DNA of 64,000 nt, taken from Escherichia coli. GTDB lineage: Bacteria > Pseudomonadota > Gammaproteobacteria > Enterobacterales > Enterobacteriaceae. Positions 46,148 to 56,383 of this stretch are shown piece after piece (position 1 is the first letter of the stretch; the number at the start of each line of letters is the position of its first letter). The stretch lies in NCBI RefSeq assembly GCF_003334405.1, contig NZ_QOWM01000003.1. The stretch is one strand, 5' to 3'. The notes beneath the pieces were generated by a model. It made no database searches. It worked only from the letters and a program-made list of their open reading frames with translations, and was not told the origin of the DNA. The translations under genes and the position numbers were made by a program.

Positions 46148-47161
46148 ATGACGTACGCAGTGGAGTTTGACAACGTCTCGCGGTTGTACGGTGACGTGCG
46201 CGCAGTAGATGGCGTCAGTATTGCGATAAAAGATGGTGAGTTCTTCTCTATGCTGGGGCCGTCCGGCTCCGGCAAAACCACCTGCCTGCGCCTGATTGCT
46301 GGCTTCGAACAGCTTTCCGGCGGGGCTATCTCTATCTTTGGTAAACCCGCCAGCAATCTGCCACCGTGGGAGCGGGACGTGAATACTGTCTTTCAGGACT
46401 ACGCGCTATTTCCGCATATGTCGATTCTTGACAATGTCGCCTATGGGCTGATGGTCAAAGGCGTGAATAAAAAGCAGCGGCACGCAATGGCGCAAGAGGC
46501 GCTGGAGAAAGTGGCGTTGGGGTTTGTACATCAACGTAAACCGTCACAACTTTCTGGTGGTCAGCGCCAGCGGGTTGCTATCGCCAGAGCATTGGTGAAT
46601 GAACCGCGCGTATTGCTGTTGGATGAACCGCTCGGCGCACTGGATCTCAAATTGCGTGAGCAGATGCAGCTGGAACTGAAAAAACTGCAACAGTCTCTCG
46701 GTATCACTTTTATCTTCGTTACCCACGATCAGGGCGAAGCGTTATCGATGTCCGATCGTGTGGCGGTTTTCAATAATGGACGCATTGAGCAGGTCGATTC
46801 CCCGCGCGATCTCTATATGCGCCCGCGCACGCCGTTTGTTGCCGGGTTCGTTGGTACATCGAATGTTTTTGATGGACTGATGGCAGAGAAACTTTGTGGC
46901 ATGACGGGAAGCTTCGCCCTGCGACCGGAACATATCCGCCTCAACACCCCTGGTGAACTGCAGGCCAATGGCACGATCCAGGCGGTGCAATATCAGGGCG
47001 CGGCAACTCGTTTTGAACTGAAATTGAACGGCGGTGAAAAACTGCTTGTGAGTCAGGCCAATATGACAGGCGAAGAACTGCCTGCCACGCTCACGCCCGG
47101 ACAACAGGTGATGGTTTCCTGGTCGCGTGATGTGATGGTGCCGCTGGTTGAGGAGAGGTGA
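46148..47161 (+). CDS. ydcT: ABC transporter ATPase
   Basis: Walker A GPSGSGKT, signature LSGGQRQR, Walker B LLLDEP. Confidence 0.9.
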   Translation: MTYAVEFDNVSRLYGDVRAVDGVSIAIKDGEFFSMLGPSGSGKTTCLRLIAGFEQLSGGAISIFGKPASNLPPWERDVNTVFQDYALFPHMSILDNVAYGLMVKGVNKKQRHAMAQEALEKVALGFVHQRKPSQLSGGQRQRVAIARALVNEPRVLLLDEPLGALDLKLREQMQLELKKLQQSLGITFIFVTHDQGEALSMSDRVAVFNNGRIEQVDSPRDLYMRPRTPFVAGFVGTSNVFDGLMAEKLCGMTGSFALRPEHIRLNTPGELQANGTIQAVQYQGAATRFELKLNGGEKLLVSQANMTGEELPATLTPGQQVMVSWSRDVMVPLVEER

Positions 47162-48103
47162 ATGGCGATGAATGTATTGCAATCACCTTCACGTCCAGGT
47201 CTGGGTAAGGTGTCCGGTTTCTTCTGGCATAATCCGGGGCTGGGGCTGTTTTTACTGCTGCTTGGCCCGCTAATGTGGTTTGGCATTGTCTATTTCGGCT
47301 CGCTGCTGACACTGTTATGGCAGGGATTTTATACTTTTGACGATTTCACCATGTCGGTAACGCCGGAACTGACGCTGGCGAATATCCGTGCGCTGTTTAA
47401 TCCGGCGAATTACGACATCATTCTCCGCACGCTGACTATGGCTGTGGCAGTCACTATCGCCAGCGCCATTCTGGCTTTTCCAATGGCGTGGTATATGGCG
47501 CGCTATACCAGCGGGAAAATGAAAGCGTTTTTTTATATTGCGGTAATGTTGCCGATGTGGGCGAGCTACATTGTTAAAGCCTATGCCTGGACGTTATTGC
47601 TGGCAAAAGATGGCGTGGCTCAGTGGTTTTTACAACATCTTGGGCTGGAACCACTGCTGACTGCGTTCCTTACATTACCTGCGGTGGGCGGAAATACGCT
47701 GTCAACTTCCGGGCTGGGGCGCTTTCTGGTGTTTCTCTATATCTGGTTGCCGTTCATGATCCTGCCCGTTCAGGCGGCGCTTGAGCGTTTGCCGCCGTCA
47801 TTGTTGCAGGCGTCGGCTGATCTCGGCGCACGTCCACGACAAACCTTTCGCTATGTGGTGCTGCCGCTGGCAATCCCGGGTATTGCCGCTGGCTCTATCT
47901 TTACCTTCTCACTCACACTGGGCGATTTTATCGTCCCGCAGCTGGTTGGTCCTCCAGGATATTTTATCGGCAATATGGTTTATTCCCAGCAGGGGGCGAT
48001 TGGCAATATGCCGATGGCGGCGGCATTCACCCTGGTGCCGATTATTCTCATCGCACTGTACCTGGCGTTCGTGAAACGTCTGGGAGCGTTCGATGCACTC
48101 TGA
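47162..48103 (+). CDS. ydcU: ABC transporter permease
   Basis: 313 aa multi-TM ORF, adjacent to ydcT stop. Confidence 0.85.
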
Positions 48104-48887
48104 ACGCGCACCGTTTTTCCTCAAACTGGCGGCCTGGGGCGGCGTTGTTTTCCTACATTTTCCCATCCTGATAATCGCCGCCTATGCGTTTAACACTGAA
48201 GATGCGGCGTTTAGTTTTCCACCGCAGGGCCTGACGCTGCGCTGGTTTAGCGTGGCAGCACAGCGTAGTGATATTCTTGATGCCGTGACACTGTCACTTA
48301 AAGTGGCGGCGCTGGCGACATTAATTGCGCTGGTGTTAGGGACGCTGGCAGCTGCCGCGCTGTGGCGACGAGACTTTTTCGGCAAAAACGCCATTTCGCT
48401 GTTACTGCTGCTGCCCATTGCGCTGCCGGGCATTGTCACTGGTCTGGCGTTATTAACCGCCTTTAAAACCATCAATCTGGAGCCGGGATTTTTCACCATC
48501 GTGGTCGGTCATGCGACTTTTTGTGTAGTTGTGGTGTTTAACAATGTCATCGCCCGTTTTCGCCGCACCTCCTGGAGTCTGGTTGAGGCGTCAATGGATC
48601 TTGGGGCCAATGGCTGGCAAACCTTCCGCTACGTAGTGTTGCCGAATCTCAGTTCGGCGTTACTGGCAGGAGGAATGCTGGCGTTTGCCTTGTCGTTCGA
48701 TGAAATCATCGTTACGACCTTTACGGCAGGTCATGAACGAACGTTACCGTTGTGGTTGCTCAATCAGCTTGGGCGACCGCGTGATGTACCGGTAACTAAC
48801 GTGGTGGCACTGCTGGTTATGTTGGTAACAACCTTGCCGATCCTGGGGGCCTGGTGGCTAACCCGCGAAGGCGACAATGGTCAATAA
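48093..48887 (+). CDS. ydcV: ABC transporter permease
   Basis: 264 aa multi-TM; overlaps ydcU by 11 nt. Confidence 0.85.
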
Positions 48888-48908
48888 CCACTGATACAGG
48901 AATATGCT

Positions 48909-50333
48909 ATGCAACATAAGTTACTGATTAACGGAGAACTGGTTAGCGGCGAAGGGGAAAAACAGCCTGTCTATAATCCGGCAACGGGGGACGTTTTACT
49001 GGAAATTGCCGAGGCATCCGCAGAGCAGGTCGATGCTGCTGTGCGCGCGGCAGATGCAGCATTTGCCGAATGGGGGCAAACCACGCCGAAAGTGCGTGCG
49101 GAATGTCTGCTGAAACTGGCTGATGTTATCGAAGAAAATGGTCAGGTTTTTGCCGAACTGGAGTCCCGTAATTGTGGCAAACCGCTGCATAGTGCGTTCA
49201 ATGATGAAATCCCGGCGATTGTCGATGTTTTTCGCTTTTTCGCGGGTGCGGCGCGCTGTCTGAATGGTCTGGCGGCAGGTGAATATCTTGAAGGTCATAC
49301 TTCGATGATCCGTCGCGATCCGTTGGGGGTCGTGGCTTCTATCGCACCGTGGAATTATCCGCTGATGATGGCCGCGTGGAAACTTGCTCCGGCGCTGGCG
49401 GCAGGGAACTGCGTAGTGCTTAAACCATCAGAAATTACCCCGCTGACCGCGTTGAAGTTGGCAGAGCTGGCGAAAGATATCTTCCCGGCAGGCGTGATTA
49501 ACATACTGTTTGGCAGAGGCAAAACGGTGGGTGATCCGCTGACCGGTCATCCCAAAGTGCGGATGGTGTCGCTGACGGGCTCTATCGCCACCGGCGAGCA
49601 CATCATCAGCCATACCGCGTCGTCCATTAAGCGTACTCATATGGAACTTGGTGGCAAAGCGCCAGTGATTGTTTTTGATGATGCGGATATTGAAGCAGTG
49701 GTCGAAGGTGTACGTACATTTGGCTATTACAATGCTGGACAGGATTGTACTGCGGCTTGTCGGATCTACGCGCAAAAAGGCATTTACGATACGCTGGTGG
49801 AAAAACTGGGTGCTGCGGTGGCAACGTTAAAATCTGGTGCGCCAGATGACGAGTCTACGGAGCTTGGACCTTTAAGCTCGCTGGCGCATCTCGAACGCGT
49901 CAGCAAGGCAGTAGAAGAGGCGAAAGCGACAGGGCACATCAAAGTGATCACTGGCGGTGAAAAGCGCAAGGGTAATGGCTATTACTATGCGCCGACGCTG
50001 CTGGCTGGCGCATTACAGGACGATGCCATCGTGCAAAAAGAGGTATTTGGTCCAGTAGTGAGTGTTACGCCCTTCGACAACGAAGAACAGGTGGTGAACT
50101 GGGCGAATGACAGCCAGTACGGACTTGCATCTTCGGTATGGACGAAAGATGTGGGCAGGGCGCATCGCGTCAGCGCACGGCTGCAATATGGTTGTACCTG
50201 GGTCAATACCCATTTCATGCTGGTAAGTGAAATGCCGCACGGTGGGCAGAAACTTTCTGGTTACGGCAAGGATATGTCACTTTATGGGCTGGAGGATTAC
50301 ACCGTCGTCCGCCACGTCATGGTTAAACATTAA
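48909..50333 (+). CDS. patD: Gamma-aminobutyraldehyde dehydrogenase
   Basis: 474 aa aldehyde dehydrogenase; catalytic Cys region [16 protein letters not shown] motif. Confidence 0.9.
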
Positions 50334-50429
50334 GGATAATATTGCAGATCGTAAGAGTATGAGATGATCTTGCGTACTGTCAGAGCACTGATTTCTCTGA
50401 CAGTACGTGCTGCGTGCAAAATCACTACA

Positions 50430-50525
50430 TCAAATAAACCAGCCAAATCTCATAGAGATAAGAGTAAACAAACCAACAGCAGCAAAGAAATTTATCAGTA
50501 CTACAGTTCTACTGGAAACATTCAT
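50430..50525 (-). CDS. yncL: 31-aa single-TM small membrane protein
   Basis: Minus-strand ORF MNVSSRTVVLINFFAAVGLFTLISMRFGWFI with aaggtgg RBS; below ORF-track cut-off. Confidence 0.55.
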   Translation of the reverse strand: MNVSSRTVVLINFFAAVGLFTLISMRFGWFI

Positions 50526-50719
50526 TTTTGCCACCTTTTATCATTGCCCCTATGTGTATAGTACGGGTTAAGAAAATCCGCAATAATACTCATTCTGAAG
50601 ATGGATAAGGGCAAGTTGCTGTTTGATGATTTTTTCTCAAACTGGTGAAAAAACTTGATGCACGTCAAAAAATGACGCATATTTGCGCGCGTTTTATTCA
50701 TCTGGTTGGACGCCCGTAC

Positions 50720-50893
50720 ATGTCTCTCTATCAACACATGCTTGTTTTTTATGCGGTTATGGCAGCAATCGCATTTCTTATCACCTGGTTTCTTTCTCAC
50801 GATAAGAAACGCATCCGTTTCTTAAGCGCCTTTCTGGTGGGGGCAACATGGCCGATGAGTTTCCCGGTGGCGCTGTTGTTTTCACTGTTTTAA
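50720..50893 (+). CDS. ortT: OrtT (GhoT-like orphan membrane toxin), 57 aa
   Basis: Internal ATG of the track ORF giving MSLYQHMLVFYAVMAAIAFLITWFLSHDKKRIRFLSAFLVGATWPMSFPVALLFSLF; two hydrophobic helices. Confidence 0.65.
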   Translation: MSLYQHMLVFYAVMAAIAFLITWFLSHDKKRIRFLSAFLVGATWPMSFPVALLFSLF

Positions 50894-50978
50894 ATCTTAC
50901 TCACTGGCTTGACGGCACCACGCAGACTTATATCATTTGGATGAATCGATAAATTTCACAAGTGGCTAAGGAGAAAGT

Positions 50979-51212
50979 ATGTCGCATCTGGATGAAGTCA
51001 TCGCGCGCGTGGATGCCGCGATTGAAGAGAGCGTCATTGCCCATATGAACGAATTATTAATCGCCCTGAGCGATGACGCGGAGTTAAGTCGGGAAGATCG
51101 CTACACCCAGCAGCAACGTCTGCGCACAGCGATCGCCCATCACGGTCGCAAGCATAAAGAAGATATGGAAGCGCGCCACGAACAGTTAACCAAAGGCGGC
51201 ACCATCCTCTGA
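50979..51212 (+). CDS. ydcY: Small DUF2526-like protein
   Basis: 77 aa ORF with RBS aaggag. Confidence 0.7.
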   Translation: MSHLDEVIARVDAAIEESVIAHMNELLIALSDDAELSREDRYTQQQRLRTAIAHHGRKHKEDMEARHEQLTKGGTIL

Positions 51213-51662
51213 TTAAAATGAGCGTCTGGCTACCAACCAGGCGCCAACCACAAGTAAAATTGCGCCACAAATTGGGCCGAACAACGCCCGTAGTGGTACG
51301 CCATGACTGCGGAAGATATCCAGCATCAGACCGCCAATCAGCTGACTGGCGACCAGTACAGCAATAGTTGTCGCCGCTCCCACATTCTGATATCCGCTGA
51401 TACTGGCGAAGACAAAAAACGATCCCAGCAAGCCAGGTATAAGTGTCCACCAGCGCACGCTGGACACCAGTTCGCCAAACCCCGCCATGCCTTGTTTAAA
51501 CCATAAAATAGAAACAAAGAGCACAATCCCCACCAGTGAGTTCAGCAACATGGCGATGAGAATGGTAGAGGAGGTCTGGGTGATGCGCACCATCAGCGTG
51601 TTCTGGACAACCAGACCAATTCCGGCGGCAATCAAAAAAGCAAGGGTGAGCGACTGATTCAT
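51213..51662 (-). CDS. ydcZ: DMT-superfamily inner-membrane protein
   Basis: 149 aa, four predicted TM segments; start overlaps mnaT stop (ATGA). Confidence 0.8.
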   Translation of the reverse strand: MNQSLTLAFLIAAGIGLVVQNTLMVRITQTSSTILIAMLLNSLVGIVLFVSILWFKQGMAGFGELVSSVRWWTLIPGLLGSFFVFASISGYQNVGAATTIAVLVASQLIGGLMLDIFRSHGVPLRALFGPICGAILLVVGAWLVARRSF

Positions 51663-52177
51663 CCAATCGCGTCCGGTTCAGTGCGCTCGTCGAGTTGCAA
51701 CTGCATAAATGTCAGATCCAGCCAACGACCAAATTTAGTGCCTACCTGCGGCATTTGCGCGGTGACGACAAATCCCAGCGACTGGTGGAGATGCAGCGAG
51801 GCCTGATTTTGCGATTCGATCCCGGCGACCATGACATGCTTCCCGCAATCCCGCGCTTCATCAATCAATCGGCTTAACAATTTACGCCCCAGACCTTTGC
51901 CCTGATGATCGGGATGGACATAAACCGAATGTTCCACGGTATGGCGAAAACCATCGAAACTACGCCAGTCGCCAAACGAGGCATATCCCGTCACTACGCC
52001 GTTTTCCTCGCTCACCAGCACTGGATAACCTGCTAAAGTCCGCGCTTCAAACCAGGCAATGCGGTTATCAGCATCCACCGTTTGGTCATTCCAGATAGCC
52101 GCCGTATACAACACGGCGTGGTTATAAATTTCCGCAATGGCAGCACAGTCGGCTTTGCGGGCAAAACGGATGGACAT
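51659..52177 (-). CDS. mnaT: GNAT-family L-amino-acid N-acyltransferase
   Basis: 172 aa from the internal ATG at 52177 (MSIRFARKADCAAIAEIYNH...); the longer track ORF is rejected. Confidence 0.85.
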   Translation of the reverse strand: MSIRFARKADCAAIAEIYNHAVLYTAAIWNDQTVDADNRIAWFEARTLAGYPVLVSEENGVVTGYASFGDWRSFDGFRHTVEHSVYVHPDHQGKGLGRKLLSRLIDEARDCGKHVMVAGIESQNQASLHLHQSLGFVVTAQMPQVGTKFGRWLDLTFMQLQLDERTEPDAIG

Positions 52178-52357
52178 GTCTGGCCTCAATAAAATAATGA
52201 TGATGATGTTATCAATACTATCGAAAACAGCCCGAAGCAACGGATTCCTCGATGAAATTATTGCGTGTTGCAGAGGGGATGTGACGGCTGCAAACAAAAC
52301 CAATCCCGTGAGCCTGCTACTATTGATGGATTCATGCCAAAAGCACAGGAGAGCATT

Positions 52358-53395
52358 ATGGGGCAACAAAAGCAGCGTAATCGACGTTGGGTTCTGGCCT
52401 CGCGTCCACATGGCGCACCTGTTCCGGAGAATTTCCGTCTTGAAGAAGATGATGTCGCCACACCGGGTGAAGGACAGGTGTTACTGCGCACAGTTTATTT
52501 GTCCCTGGACCCGTATATGCGTGGACGTATGAGCGATGAGCCATCTTATTCACCGCCTGTTGATATTGGCGGCGTGATGGTCGGCGGTACGGTGAGCCGT
52601 GTCGTGGAGTCGAATCATCCTGATTATCAGTCTGGCGACTGGGTGCTGGGCTACAGTGGATGGCAAGACTATGACATATCCAGTGGTGATGATCTGGTGA
52701 AACTTGGCGATCATCCGCAAAATCCATCGTGGTCGCTGGGTGTGCTAGGGATGCCAGGCTTTACCGCTTATATGGGCCTACTGGATATCGGTCAGCCTAA
52801 AGAGGGCGAAACGTTGGTGGTAGCTGCGGCGACAGGACCAGTGGGGGCGACGGTGGGGCAAATCGGCAAACTTAAAGGTTGCAGAGTGGTGGGGGTAGCC
52901 GGTGGCGCGGAAAAATGCCGCCATGCTACCGAGGTGTTAGGCTTCGATGTTTGTCTTGATCACCACGCGGATGATTTTGCCGAACAACTGGCGAAAGCGT
53001 GCCCAAAAGGTATTGATATCTATTATGAAAACGTGGGCGGTAAGGTATTCGATGCGGTGCTACCGTTACTTAATACATCTGCGCGCATTCCCGTCTGCGG
53101 ATTAGTGAGCAGCTATAACGCTACAGAGCTACCACCCGGTCCGGATCGTTTACCTCTGTTGATGGCTACAGTGCTGAAAAAACGTATTCGCTTGCAAGGT
53201 TTTATTATCGCTCAGGATTATGGTCACCGCATCCATGAGTTTCAGAGGGAGATGGGGCAATGGGTGAAAGAGGATAAAATCCACTACCGCGAAGAAATTA
53301 CTGACGGTTTAGAGAATGCGCCACAGACGTTTATCGGCCTGCTGAAGGGTAAAAACTTCGGCAAAGTGGTGATCCGCGTGGCGGGTGATGATTAA
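52358..53395 (+). CDS. curA: NADPH-dependent curcumin / enone reductase (MDR superfamily)
   Basis: ATG 52358 with aggagag RBS; Rossmann motif AAATGPVGATVGQIGK. Confidence 0.85.
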   Translation: MGQQKQRNRRWVLASRPHGAPVPENFRLEEDDVATPGEGQVLLRTVYLSLDPYMRGRMSDEPSYSPPVDIGGVMVGGTVSRVVESNHPDYQSGDWVLGYSGWQDYDISSGDDLVKLGDHPQNPSWSLGVLGMPGFTAYMGLLDIGQPKEGETLVVAAATGPVGATVGQIGKLKGCRVVGVAGGAEKCRHATEVLGFDVCLDHHADDFAEQLAKACPKGIDIYYENVGGKVFDAVLPLLNTSARIPVCGLVSSYNATELPPGPDRLPLLMATVLKKRIRLQGFIIAQDYGHRIHEFQREMGQWVKEDKIHYREEITDGLENAPQTFIGLLKGKNFGKVVIRVAGDD

Positions 53396-53579
53396 AGTTT
53401 CAACGGCGGCGTAAGCCGCCATAAAAATCCAGGCAAAAAGCTTATTTTCAGCTTTAATTAACTAACCACATCATTGTTCTGCTGCTAATAACAACTTATG
53501 ATTATTCACTTTAATACACCAGGTGAATTCCTTCTGCCATGCAGGCAGGGTTGGACAGAAAACACGCGAAGGAATTAAA

Positions 53580-54245
53580 ATGCCTGGAACGGGAAAAATG
53601 AAACATGTCAGTTTGACTCTGCAGGTTGAGAACGACCTGAAACATCAGCTTAGTATTGGCGCATTAAAACCTGGCGCACGCCTGATTACTAAAAATCTGG
53701 CGGAGCAATTAGGTATGAGTATTACACCTGTGCGTGAAGCATTATTACGTCTGGTTTCGGTGAATGCGCTTTCTGTCGCACCTGCACAAGCATTTACAGT
53801 TCCGGAAGTGGGGAAACGTCAATTAGACGAAATCAATCGGATCCGCTACGAACTGGAATTAATGGCAGTTGCTCTGGCTGTTGAAAACCTCACCCCGCAA
53901 GACCTTGCGGAACTCCAGGAATTGCTCGAGAAATTACAGCAGGCGCAAGAAAAGGGCGACATGGAACAAATCATTAATGTAAACAGGCTATTTCGCTTAG
54001 CGATTTATCATCGCTCAAATATGCCCATCCTGTGTGAGATGATTGAGCAACTGTGGGTCAGGATGGGGCCTGGTTTACATTATCTCTATGAAGCGATTAA
54101 TCCAGCGGAATTACGGGAGCATATAGAAAACTATCATCTGTTACTCGCTGCGTTAAAAGCAAAAGACAAAGAGGGATGCAGACATTGTCTTGCTGAAATT
54201 ATGCAACAAAATATTGCTATTTTATACCAGCAATACAATCGTTAA
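53580..54245 (+). CDS. mcbR: GntR/FadR-family regulator McbR
   Basis: 221 aa from ATG 53580 with aaggaa RBS; N-terminal winged HTH. Confidence 0.8.
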   Translation: MPGTGKMKHVSLTLQVENDLKHQLSIGALKPGARLITKNLAEQLGMSITPVREALLRLVSVNALSVAPAQAFTVPEVGKRQLDEINRIRYELELMAVALAVENLTPQDLAELQELLEKLQQAQEKGDMEQIINVNRLFRLAIYHRSNMPILCEMIEQLWVRMGPGLHYLYEAINPAELREHIENYHLLLAALKAKDKEGCRHCLAEIMQQNIAILYQQYNR

Positions 54246-54280
54246 AGTAAATGCCCGGCAAATACCGGGCATCAAGGTAA

Positions 54281-56383
54281 TTACTCAAATCTCCACGCAA
54301 TATTCATGCCGACACCATAATTTCGTCCGGGCGAAGGTTCGTAATATCGCCCGTTTGACTCATTGACAATGACAGAACCAACGTATTCTTTATCGAATAA
54401 ATTATCGACACGACCAAATAAATCCACAGTTAAATTGTGGTAATTGTATTTATACCCGGTGAATAAGCCGACGAGAGTATAAGACGGCGCTTTTGCCGTA
54501 TTTTCATCATCTGCCATAATATCGCCCATATAACGCGCTTCCGTGCCTGCATACCAACCATCTTCCGGTACATAACCTATCGACGCAAAGCCCATATTAC
54601 GGGCGATCCCTGGCATCCGATTACCGTTACAATCCTGTTCATTGCAAACATTGCTGCGATAGGTCGCATCAAGCCAGGTCCAGGACGCGTTTACGCGAAA
54701 ATCTCCTGCGAAACGTTGATCCCATGCCAGTTCAGCGCCTTGACGACGGGTCTTTCCGGCATTTTTGTAAGTCGTACGCCCACCGCTACTGCTATCGACA
54801 ACAATTTCATCATCAGTGTCGGTCTGAAACAATGCGAGACTAAGCAGCCCATCACCAATACGCGTTTTACTGCCGATCTCAATTGTATCGTTGGTGGATG
54901 GTTTTAAACCTAAGTTCATACCGCTTTGCCCATCAGCACGATAAGACAGCTCATTAATCGTCGGCGTTTCAAAACCTCGCCCGGCTGCCAGATAGATATT
55001 CCAGGCATCGGTCATTGCATATTTTAACGAACCGGCAGGTAGCCATTTATGATAACTGGCATCACCGCTGTCATCGCCGTTACCCGGAGTAACGTAATGG
55101 TCGTTGGAATCAAACCACACGGAGCTGTAGCGCACGCCAGCATCCAGCGACAGTTTTTCGCTCAGCTGCCACTGCGTCTGTAAATAGGGATCGATGTTCC
55201 ACATCAGATTGCGTTCGTCGCGACGCAACTCACCTTTTTGCCCGTACTCCGGCATGCCGCTATTCAGGCGGAAGTTATTGTAGCCCTTGCGGTTTTCACT
55301 CATGTTTTCGTAGTTCAGGCCGGTAGTGAACGTGACCGGAACGCCCAGTTCACCACGGTGTGTCCAGCGGCTGTCTATTCCCTGGTAATGGCGTTGCAGG
55401 GTAATCACGCCGCCCGCATGTGACGGGTTAAGTTGTGGTGCCATGGGTATTGACTGGTACTGGGTCGTTTCTCGCTCTCCGGCATACATCATCACACTCA
55501 TATCATCCCGCGAACTCAGGCTACGCTCATAGCGCAACCCAGCCTGAGTTTGCTTGATGGTTTTTCGCGTGTCGTACTGTTCTGCACGAGGCGCTTGTTG
55601 TGGATTTGCCTTCCATTCTGCTTTGGTTAGCCCACCTGGGTCATCTGCTTTGATATCCACACTATTGAAAATCAGACTTAATTTGCTGGCTTCATCAATG
55701 CGTACGCCCAGTTTGGCATTGGCTAAATTTTTCTGTGCGCCACTATGGTCACGATAGCCGTGGGTCGTAAAACGCGTGGTTGAGACGGTGTAATCGACAT
55801 CGCCAGGCTGTGTGCCGTCTCCCGTTGCGCCCGTTGCTTTCAGCCCATAGCGCCAGCTGCCAAAACTGCCGTAGTAACTACTGGCTTCAATGGTTGGTGG
55901 CTGTTGTCCGGTCTGGGTGGTGACATTCATTACCCCACCAGACGCGTTGCCATACAGGGCAGAGAAGGGGCCACGCAGCACTTCCACATTTTGCACACTG
56001 CTTAAATCGATGTTGGATGTTTGCCCTTGCCCGTCGGGCATGGTGGCGGGAATACCGTCCACATACAGGCGAATACCGCGAATACCGTAAGTGGAGCGGG
56101 AGCCAAATCCGCGAATCGACAGCTGTAAATCTTGCGCATAGTTCTGCCGGTTTTGTACCTGCAAACCAGGCACGCCGGTCAGTGATTCGGACAAGTTAAT
56201 GCGCGGTGTTGCCAGGCGCATCTCCTCGCCATCCACCACGCTTACTGCTGCTGGGGTATCCAGTTCTGAAACCACCTGCGGTGCGGCACTGACAATCATA
56301 GTCTGTTCATCAGCGGCAAAAACAACGGGGGAAAGGACAAGCAGTGCGGGCAAAACGGTCTGTCGGACGGAAAAAATCTTCAT
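54281..56383 (-). CDS. yncD: TonB-dependent outer-membrane receptor
   Basis: 700 aa; signal peptide, plug and barrel, C-terminal ...AWRFE. Confidence 0.9.
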   Translation of the reverse strand: MKIFSVRQTVLPALLVLSPVVFAADEQTMIVSAAPQVVSELDTPAAVSVVDGEEMRLATPRINLSESLTGVPGLQVQNRQNYAQDLQLSIRGFGSRSTYGIRGIRLYVDGIPATMPDGQGQTSNIDLSSVQNVEVLRGPFSALYGNASGGVMNVTTQTGQQPPTIEASSYYGSFGSWRYGLKATGATGDGTQPGDVDYTVSTTRFTTHGYRDHSGAQKNLANAKLGVRIDEASKLSLIFNSVDIKADDPGGLTKAEWKANPQQAPRAEQYDTRKTIKQTQAGLRYERSLSSRDDMSVMMYAGERETTQYQSIPMAPQLNPSHAGGVITLQRHYQGIDSRWTHRGELGVPVTFTTGLNYENMSENRKGYNNFRLNSGMPEYGQKGELRRDERNLMWNIDPYLQTQWQLSEKLSLDAGVRYSSVWFDSNDHYVTPGNGDDSGDASYHKWLPAGSLKYAMTDAWNIYLAAGRGFETPTINELSYRADGQSGMNLGLKPSTNDTIEIGSKTRIGDGLLSLALFQTDTDDEIVVDSSSGGRTTYKNAGKTRRQGAELAWDQRFAGDFRVNASWTWLDATYRSNVCNEQDCNGNRMPGIARNMGFASIGYVPEDGWYAGTEARYMGDIMADDENTAKAPSYTLVGLFTGYKYNYHNLTVDLFGRVDNLFDKEYVGSVIVNESNGRYYEPSPGRNYGVGMNIAWRFE

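Follow-up and report, generated by a model that had tools for sequence, protein, structure and literature searches.

Downstream of patD in Escherichia coli lie two very small genes, yncL and ortT (also designated ydcX), the second of which encodes a membrane toxin. Both had been picked out by an earlier note on a 64,000 nt stretch of E. coli DNA, hereafter termed the window. They raise the question of whether such short frames represent genuine and correctly delimited genes, whether they function as a pair, and what restrains the output of a toxin gene that would have neither a protein nor an RNA antitoxin.

[quoted passage not shown] The K-12 protein, which has the same sequence as that encoded in the window, is toxic as a protein, arrests growth, causes membrane damage and loss of ATP, and responds to stringent-response conditions, with serine hydroxamate, mupirocin, trimethoprim and heat as its inducers (PMC4344625). 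YncL is described, in a passage of PMC12542507 citing Hemm 2008 and 2010, as a membrane protein induced in stationary phase or by stress, with levels that rise on heat shock and during growth in minimal medium; its production leads to sublethal partial depolarisation and nucleoid condensation (PMC12542507). The protein undergoes RseP-dependent cleavage in vivo (PMC10470546), and its mRNA has been captured with the small RNA KilS by RIL-seq (PMC8175672). The Salmonella orthologue (STnc1110/STM14_1932), first catalogued as the small RNA STnc1110, needs sigma-S for its expression (PMC5437024).

Identity of the locus

The window is part of an E. coli chromosome, positions 46331-54318 of which align to 1,513,000-1,521,000 of K-12 MG1655 with two substitutions and one 13 nt gap. 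The yncL-ortT region is 99.8% identical to that of K-12, and both coding sequences are the same as their K-12 counterparts. The strain itself is not K-12, since single-base differences are found at 50706 (T for the K-12 C, lying in the leader of ortT beside the weak GGA, at a distance of 14 nt from the ATG) and at 49902 (A for the K-12 G, inside patD). When a 701 bp query around yncL-ortT was used with a threshold of at least 95% identity, the region was found in 5406 of 5426 complete E. coli genomes, and the matching genomes are annotated with the gene order patD, yncL, ortT, ydcY. RefSeq coordinates transferred to the window (Table 1) agree to the base with those that the earlier note had proposed for a 31 aa yncL and a 57 aa ortT following patD.

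Short open reading frames are uninformative here, as 74 of at least 20 aa overlap the surrounding 4 kb. The two genes are instead accepted as real because of their matches to family profiles, the RefSeq coordinates, their near-constant presence in E. coli and their conservation across genera, which holds for both. No evidence contradicting either gene's identity was encountered. It is very probable (around 0.9) that yncL and ortT are two independent, divergently transcribed and already described genes for small membrane proteins, belonging to the core genome of E. coli. Their novelty is nil, both being annotated and experimentally characterised in dedicated papers, and the one shortfall of the earlier note is that it recovered textbook annotation rather than a discovery; in practice it is useful for confirming that raw sequence suffices to recognise short genes, including the internal start of ortT.

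The 13 nt gap relative to K-12 lies at 53495, in the curA-mcbR spacer, where the window lacks AAAGGTGAGTGGT, a sequence present in K-12 and in strain FORC 064. Across this position 3898 of 4089 matching E. coli genomes align at 90-95%, with the hits listed showing 92.5%, as expected when the 13 nt are present, so that the deletion is shared by few other genomes, if any. The 13 bases make up, in K-12, a Shine-Dalgarno-like AAGGTGAG located six bases ahead of an unannotated frame of 27 codons that begins with ATG.

Table 1. Features of the yncL-ortT locus in window coordinates, with related genes at loci of other species in the coordinates of those loci
Feature	Position	Strand	Details
patD, gamma-aminobutyraldehyde dehydrogenase	48909..50333	+	474 aa ORF; RefSeq; upstream neighbour, context only
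Hairpin between convergent patD and yncL	50374..50406	both	12 bp perfect stem, 9 nt loop; from folding, z -3.3 on minus strand
yncL coding sequence, 31 aa	50430..50525	-	MNVSSRTVVLINFFAAVGLFTLISMRFGWFI; ATG 50525, stop 50430; RefSeq; NCBIfam NF000537
yncL Shine-Dalgarno sequence	50531..50537	-	AAGGTGG, 5 nt before ATG; strong, conserved
Putative yncL promoter	50555..50583	-	-35 TTGCGG (50583-50578), 17 bp spacer, -10 TATACA (50560-50555), C at -13; block conserved in 28 species
In-frame extension upstream of ortT	50645..50719	+	GTG 50645 and ATG 50672, giving 82 aa and 73 aa ORFs; judged non-coding
FNR box	50655..50668	+	TTGATGCACGTCAA; 9 of 10 positions of TTGAT-N4-ATCAA
Putative ortT core promoter	50655..50683	+	-35 TTGATG (50655-50660), 17 bp spacer, -10 CATATT (50678-50683); from conservation
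ortT Shine-Dalgarno element	50708..50710	+	GGA, 9 nt before ATG; weak, sole anti-Shine-Dalgarno complement
ortT (ydcX) coding sequence, 57 aa	50720..50893	+	ATG 50720; GhoT/OrtT-family two-helix membrane toxin; PF10753; RefSeq
ydcY, DUF2526, 77 aa	50979..51212	+	ORF list and RefSeq; downstream neighbour
Second GhoT/OrtT-family gene	~4260-4470		Loci L027, L029, L035, L046, L049, L051, L063, L069, L072, L073, L078, L082
Second GhoT/OrtT-family gene	~3056-3233		Loci L042, L043

Products and expression signals of the two genes

The expectations of the earlier note for the gene products, namely a single transmembrane helix in YncL, two in OrtT and a resemblance of the latter to GhoT, were all borne out. 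YncL matches NCBIfam NF000537 with 68.6 bits (cut-off 35), residues 1-30 covering positions 1-30 of the 30 in the model, and displays the pattern of its family: a length of 30-31 aa, an N-terminal M(N/D/E)VSS(R/K)TV, one hydrophobic helix and a C-terminal RFGWF. Hydropathy places the single hydrophobic stretch at approximately residues 7-24. The protein is conserved in 28 species, and its orthologues bear the label PF28073 in precomputed Pfam assignments; the copy of Pfam-A searched contained no YncL model. Only 49 YncL-like clusters were recovered at E <= 0.001 in a profile search of 1.84 billion representative proteins.

OrtT matches Pfam PF10753 (Toxin_GhoT_OrtT) with an E value of 9.2e-28 and 96.7 bits, residues 4-57 aligning with positions 1-55 of the 55 in the model, and can be aligned over its full length and without gaps to K-12 GhoT, to which 36 of its 57 residues (63%) are identical. 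No matching model was found when NCBIfam was searched with OrtT, and the anti-phage defence models of PADLOC matched none of OrtT, YncL and YdcY. Hydrophobic stretches at approximately residues 7-25 and 34-57 flank a basic loop, SHDKKRIR, and AlphaFold2 places helices at 3-27 and 29-56 with a mean pLDDT of 71.6, such that the two methods agree on a predicted two-helix hairpin. The translation contains F38, and the substitution F38R is known to weaken the toxicity of both GhoT and OrtT (PMC4344625). OrtT is best pictured as a 57-residue helical hairpin which, when made, damages the inner membrane, lowers ATP and slows growth. A second gene of the GhoT/OrtT family, 58-66% identical to OrtT, adjoins ortT in Kosakonia, Phytobacter and some Enterobacter-like species, lying either 90-220 bp downstream or ~770 bp upstream of it, with GhoS absent.

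The strength of the ribosome-binding sites of both genes was judged by eye from the sequence, and the original assessment of a strong site for yncL and a weak one for ortT stands. That of yncL takes the form (A/G)AGGTGG or GGGTGG in all 25 close orthologues and GAGGATG in three distant ones; the GTG start of a listed 34 aa frame falls within it. At a similar distance from the ortT ATG, most species have GGA, AGGA or GGG. The arrangement of the putative yncL promoter, as assigned from its conserved hexamers, appears sigma-S-like, in agreement with the sigma-S dependence of the Salmonella orthologue. The gene specifies an inner-membrane protein of 31 residues that spans the bilayer once; its promoter would be of the sigma-S type, and its short leader contains a strong Shine-Dalgarno sequence. 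At the other end of yncL, its 3' end and that of patD overlap, the two genes being listed as a convergent transcriptional overlap (PMC12288877). The hairpin between them has no U-tract on either strand and may be a processing or pause site for these overlapping 3' ends.

A conserved FNR box at the putative ortT promoter

From Escherichia to Pantoea, ortT is preceded by a block of the form AAAACTTGAT-N4-ATCAA-N8-GCATATTGCGCGCG, fixed at 61-67 nt from the ATG. The majority-base fraction is at least 0.9 within this block, as against 0.61 at the third codon positions of ortT and ~0.4 in the neighbouring spacer. It includes a match to the consensus binding site of FNR, TTGAT-N4-ATCAA (PMC3688515); 37 of 77 species agree with this consensus at every position and 28 more at all but one, such that 65 of the 77 deviate at no more than one position; the box is also visible in an alignment of 14 genera. 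The pattern is not rare alone, with seven occurrences at one mismatch or fewer in the window against 3.1 expected, and the weight of the box comes from its conservation and from published experiment, not from the pattern. In genera without yncL the box is still present, with its spacing from the ortT ATG fixed, and it therefore belongs to ortT. An FNR operator thus appears, on comparative grounds, to have been kept at the ortT promoter across the Enterobacteriaceae.

The same block would provide the core promoter of ortT. The 18 nt gap between TTGAT and CATAT is fixed in 71 of 80 species, and the only variants of the -10 hexamer, CATAAT and CATAGT, differ at position 5, which is the least constrained position of a -10 element. 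Transcription is predicted to start near 50690. The FNR box overlaps the putative -35 hexamer and spacer, and with this assignment of the hexamers its centre would lie near -28.5, where bound FNR would be expected to occlude RNA polymerase. A simple promoter and terminator scan gave hits at chance level and missed both conserved promoters, those of yncL and ortT. Directly after the ortT -10 is a G+C-rich stretch, TGCGCGCG, at 50684-50691. A stretch of this kind usually accompanies negative stringent control, and its presence here sits awkwardly with the published induction of the gene by serine hydroxamate.

Two independent ChIP studies found FNR bound in vivo at this motif (PMC1802558 Table 2; PMC3688515 Tables S5-S7). 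Myers et al. 2013 recorded the yncL/ydcX spacer as containing an FNR site with a high score, together with a strong ChIP-seq peak (PMC3688515 Tables S5, S6), the target of which was given as indistinguishable between the two genes, and found that expression of these genes in glucose minimal medium did not change with FNR (PMC3688515 Table S9). Similarly, ydcX is listed by Grainger et al. as having escaped identification in transcriptome analysis (PMC1802558). The yncL-ortT spacer also contains a SELEX peak for RNA polymerase with sigma-S (PMC5493296), and ydcX was up 11.85-fold in anaerobic, nitrate-grown, NO-accumulating CFT073, together with cyoABCD and sdhD (PMC5320621).

From these observations a means of restraint can be proposed, in which the output of ortT would be held low by its transcription and translation signals and not by an antitoxin, these signals being the weak ribosome-binding site and a promoter in which the conserved FNR box would lie over the -35 and spacer. 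Active, anaerobic FNR would repress the gene, and oxygen or nitric oxide would relieve this repression. That FNR directly gates ortT in this manner, keeping it silent in anaerobiosis until released by oxygen or NO and so replacing the missing antitoxin with a redox regulator, is put forward tentatively, at somewhat less than even odds.

FNR could alternatively be a class II activator of ortT, with the box at -41.5, a start near 50703 and a -10 in the T-rich 50692-50697. Such a position would be typical, since 19 of 23 FNR-activated promoters with a known start have their site at -41.5 +/- 4 (PMC3688515), and a T-rich segment follows GCGCGCG in most species; the increase of ydcX in anaerobic nitrate cultures, moreover, occurred alongside that of fdnG, which is activated by FNR and NarL (PMC5320621). 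However, the candidate -10, TTTTAT in E. coli and GTTATT, ATTTTA or TTTGTT elsewhere, is poorly conserved and without an A at position 2, and the arrangement leaves unexplained both the near-invariant GCATATTGCG and its variation at position 5 only. There is also no conserved upstream site for a co-activator, conservation being ~0.4 upstream of AAAAC, and FNR did not activate the gene in glucose minimal medium (PMC3688515 Table S9). Class II activation is consequently considered unlikely.

The FNR ChIP data and the literature on the OrtT toxin have so far been unconnected. FNR goes unmentioned in the paper describing OrtT (PMC4344625), and no link between FNR and ortT regulation was found in the literature searched, in which one Pantoea fitness paper contains both terms. 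Were repression by FNR to prove correct, it would explain the tolerance of a toxin gene without an antitoxin, and one of the strongest of the 'silent' FNR ChIP peaks of E. coli would then have an output.

The adjacency of yncL and ortT

A different form of restraint would be a functional pairing in which YncL modulates or neutralises OrtT, which would explain why the two genes have been retained head to head. Their divergent arrangement, with starts ~190 bp apart, is retained, amid changing flanks on both sides, in Escherichia, Salmonella, Citrobacter, Intestinirhabdus and Pluralibacter, and the published antitoxin tests cloned only the spacer and not the yncL coding sequence, with the genomic library providing ~3-fold coverage in inserts averaging 622 bp (PMC4344625). 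Divergent yncL is, however, found beside ortT only in the first four of these genera, with a diverged form in Pluralibacter and its relatives, and most genera, for instance Enterobacter, Lelliottia, Leclercia, Kosakonia, Phytobacter and Pantoea, have ortT without it. Conversely, YncL-family genes occur at unrelated places, such as beside thrS or a GGDEF/EAL gene pair, and in Lelliottia sp. WAP21 the YncL-like gene (locus L095) is ~540 kb from ortT (locus L047) on the same contig. YncL furthermore depolarises the membrane itself, the opposite of what an antidote would do (PMC12542507), and a functional pair is judged highly unlikely. Given that most ortT genera lack a neighbouring yncL and that YncL-like genes are found elsewhere, the adjacency of the two is a lineage-specific arrangement and not evidence of a toxin and its partner.

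The surroundings of both genes vary between species. The upstream neighbour of ortT is patD in the majority of the 80 species compared. In Salmonella, Citrobacter, Intestinirhabdus and Kosakonia (loci L004-L008 and L011) convergent srfC/srfB-like genes (Virul_Fac, SrfB) follow ortT in place of ydcY-ydcZ, and at one of these loci (L008) the gene called as srfC-like extends ~70 nt into the 3' end of ortT. In Enterobacter hormaechei (locus L050, 2864-3757), two paralogous minus-strand frames of 108 and 122 aa, with the common motif TRSTPFWNKE.AP, lie between patD and ortT, at the place occupied by yncL in Escherichia. In other Enterobacterales, diverged YncL-family genes (L093, 2501-2799; L094 and L095, 1635-2593) adjoin further tiny membrane-protein genes, these being a YniD-like gene of 35 aa, a YoaK gene of 32 aa and a Transgly_assoc gene, which suggests that small membrane-protein genes tend to cluster.

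The search for an antitoxin

The earlier note had reported no cognate antitoxin gene near ortT, and wider searches upheld this. No GhoS was detected by tblastn in the 64 kb window (best E value 3.9), nor at E <= 1e-3 within 4 kb of ortT in 80 species, and the adjacent, co-transcribed ghoS characteristic of a type V system is missing at ortT. Published experiments found that none of YdcY, GhoS, the flanking RNA and a genomic library neutralises OrtT, with co-production of YdcY leaving its toxicity unrelieved (PMC4344625). Among the 80 species, ydcY is present only in Escherichia loci. GhoS and YdcY were both discarded as candidates for a conserved OrtT partner, the former being absent from every one of the 80 species' loci and the latter restricted to Escherichia.

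RNA-based control was considered likewise. An Rfam scan of 49800-51400 at E <= 1 gave no match. The E. coli ortT leader folds worse than shuffled sequence (z +1.44), and no consensus fold was found for it across 12 species; a leader structure hiding the ortT start was rejected on these two grounds. It is most improbable that ortT is a type I toxin gene whose antisense RNA antitoxin, encoded in the flanking DNA, has been overlooked, a proposal invited by the small size and hydrophobicity that OrtT shares with Hok, TisB and Ibs and by a terminator-like site that the simple scan flagged at 50692-50675 of the minus strand: the number of hits in that scan is the chance expectation, the Rfam and leader results offer no candidate RNA or conserved structure, and the cloned flanking spacers left toxicity undiminished (PMC4344625).

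The start codon of ortT

In the window, the ATG of ortT is internal to a listed 82 aa frame that begins at GTG 50645, and the choice of this internal codon by the earlier note was examined in 81 sequences, comprising the window and the orthologous locus from one genome of each of 80 species. The homologous ATG is kept in all 81, and in seven species is immediately preceded by a stop codon. Upstream of it the frame remains open for anything from 0 to 64 codons, and the extension between 50645 and 50719 contains indels of 1-2 nt between genera. Amino acid conservation begins sharply at the first methionine, with M-S/T-L-Y/F-Q. The 57 aa call is correct in the light of the invariant ATG, the variable extent of the open frame, the seven stops, the indels and this abrupt onset. 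The extension instead holds the conserved promoter and FNR box, and the position of both upstream starts, either upstream of or inside that promoter, is a further argument against the long frame.

A genuine 73 or 82 aa isoform starting at ATG 50672 or GTG 50645 can hardly be credited, despite 30 open codons ahead of the ATG in the present strain and public gene callers that often give products of 60-97 aa, in the face of the evidence above and of the end-to-end alignment of GhoT at 57 aa. Public records of OrtT orthologues range from 53 to 97 aa, as gene callers choose different in-frame starts upstream, and the start of ortT is hence wrong in many of them, the called products running from 57 to 97 aa. 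Some of these records are also misnamed, for instance as '4-hydroxybenzoate polyprenyltransferase'.

Comparison with known systems

The closest relative of OrtT among described systems is GhoT (b4559), the toxin of the E. coli type V GhoT/GhoS system, which is likewise of 57 aa and belongs to PF10753. The C-terminal halves of the two are almost identical, conforming to LSAFLVG.TWPMS.PVALLFSLF, and both proteins damage the membrane and lower ATP (PMC4344625). They differ in their genetic setting: ghoT lies 27 bp 3' of ghoS in one operon, whereas a separate promoter is assigned to ortT, and no ghoS-like gene adjoins it in any of the 81 genomes examined.

Type I toxins such as Hok, TisB, Ibs and Ldr are likewise small hydrophobic inner-membrane peptides that collapse the membrane potential. 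In contrast to these, the Rfam scan and the folding of the leader gave no sign of an antisense RNA partner or of a long structured leader at ortT, and the flanking spacers are short (PMC4344625).

YncL, for its part, resembles YohP and other stress-induced, single-pass small membrane proteins in being ~30 aa long, in having one helix and in its induction by stress or in stationary phase. The production of YohP, like that of YncL, results in sublethal depolarisation and nucleoid condensation (PMC12542507). YncL nevertheless has no sequence relationship to proteins of this type, and forms its own small family, NF000537.

With respect to its regulation, the yncL/ydcX spacer in glucose minimal medium is in the same state as the sites of Category 5 of Myers et al. 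2013, which are bound by FNR and have no known output. In contrast to that listing, in which the target was indistinguishable between the two genes, the box is here assigned to ortT and not to yncL.
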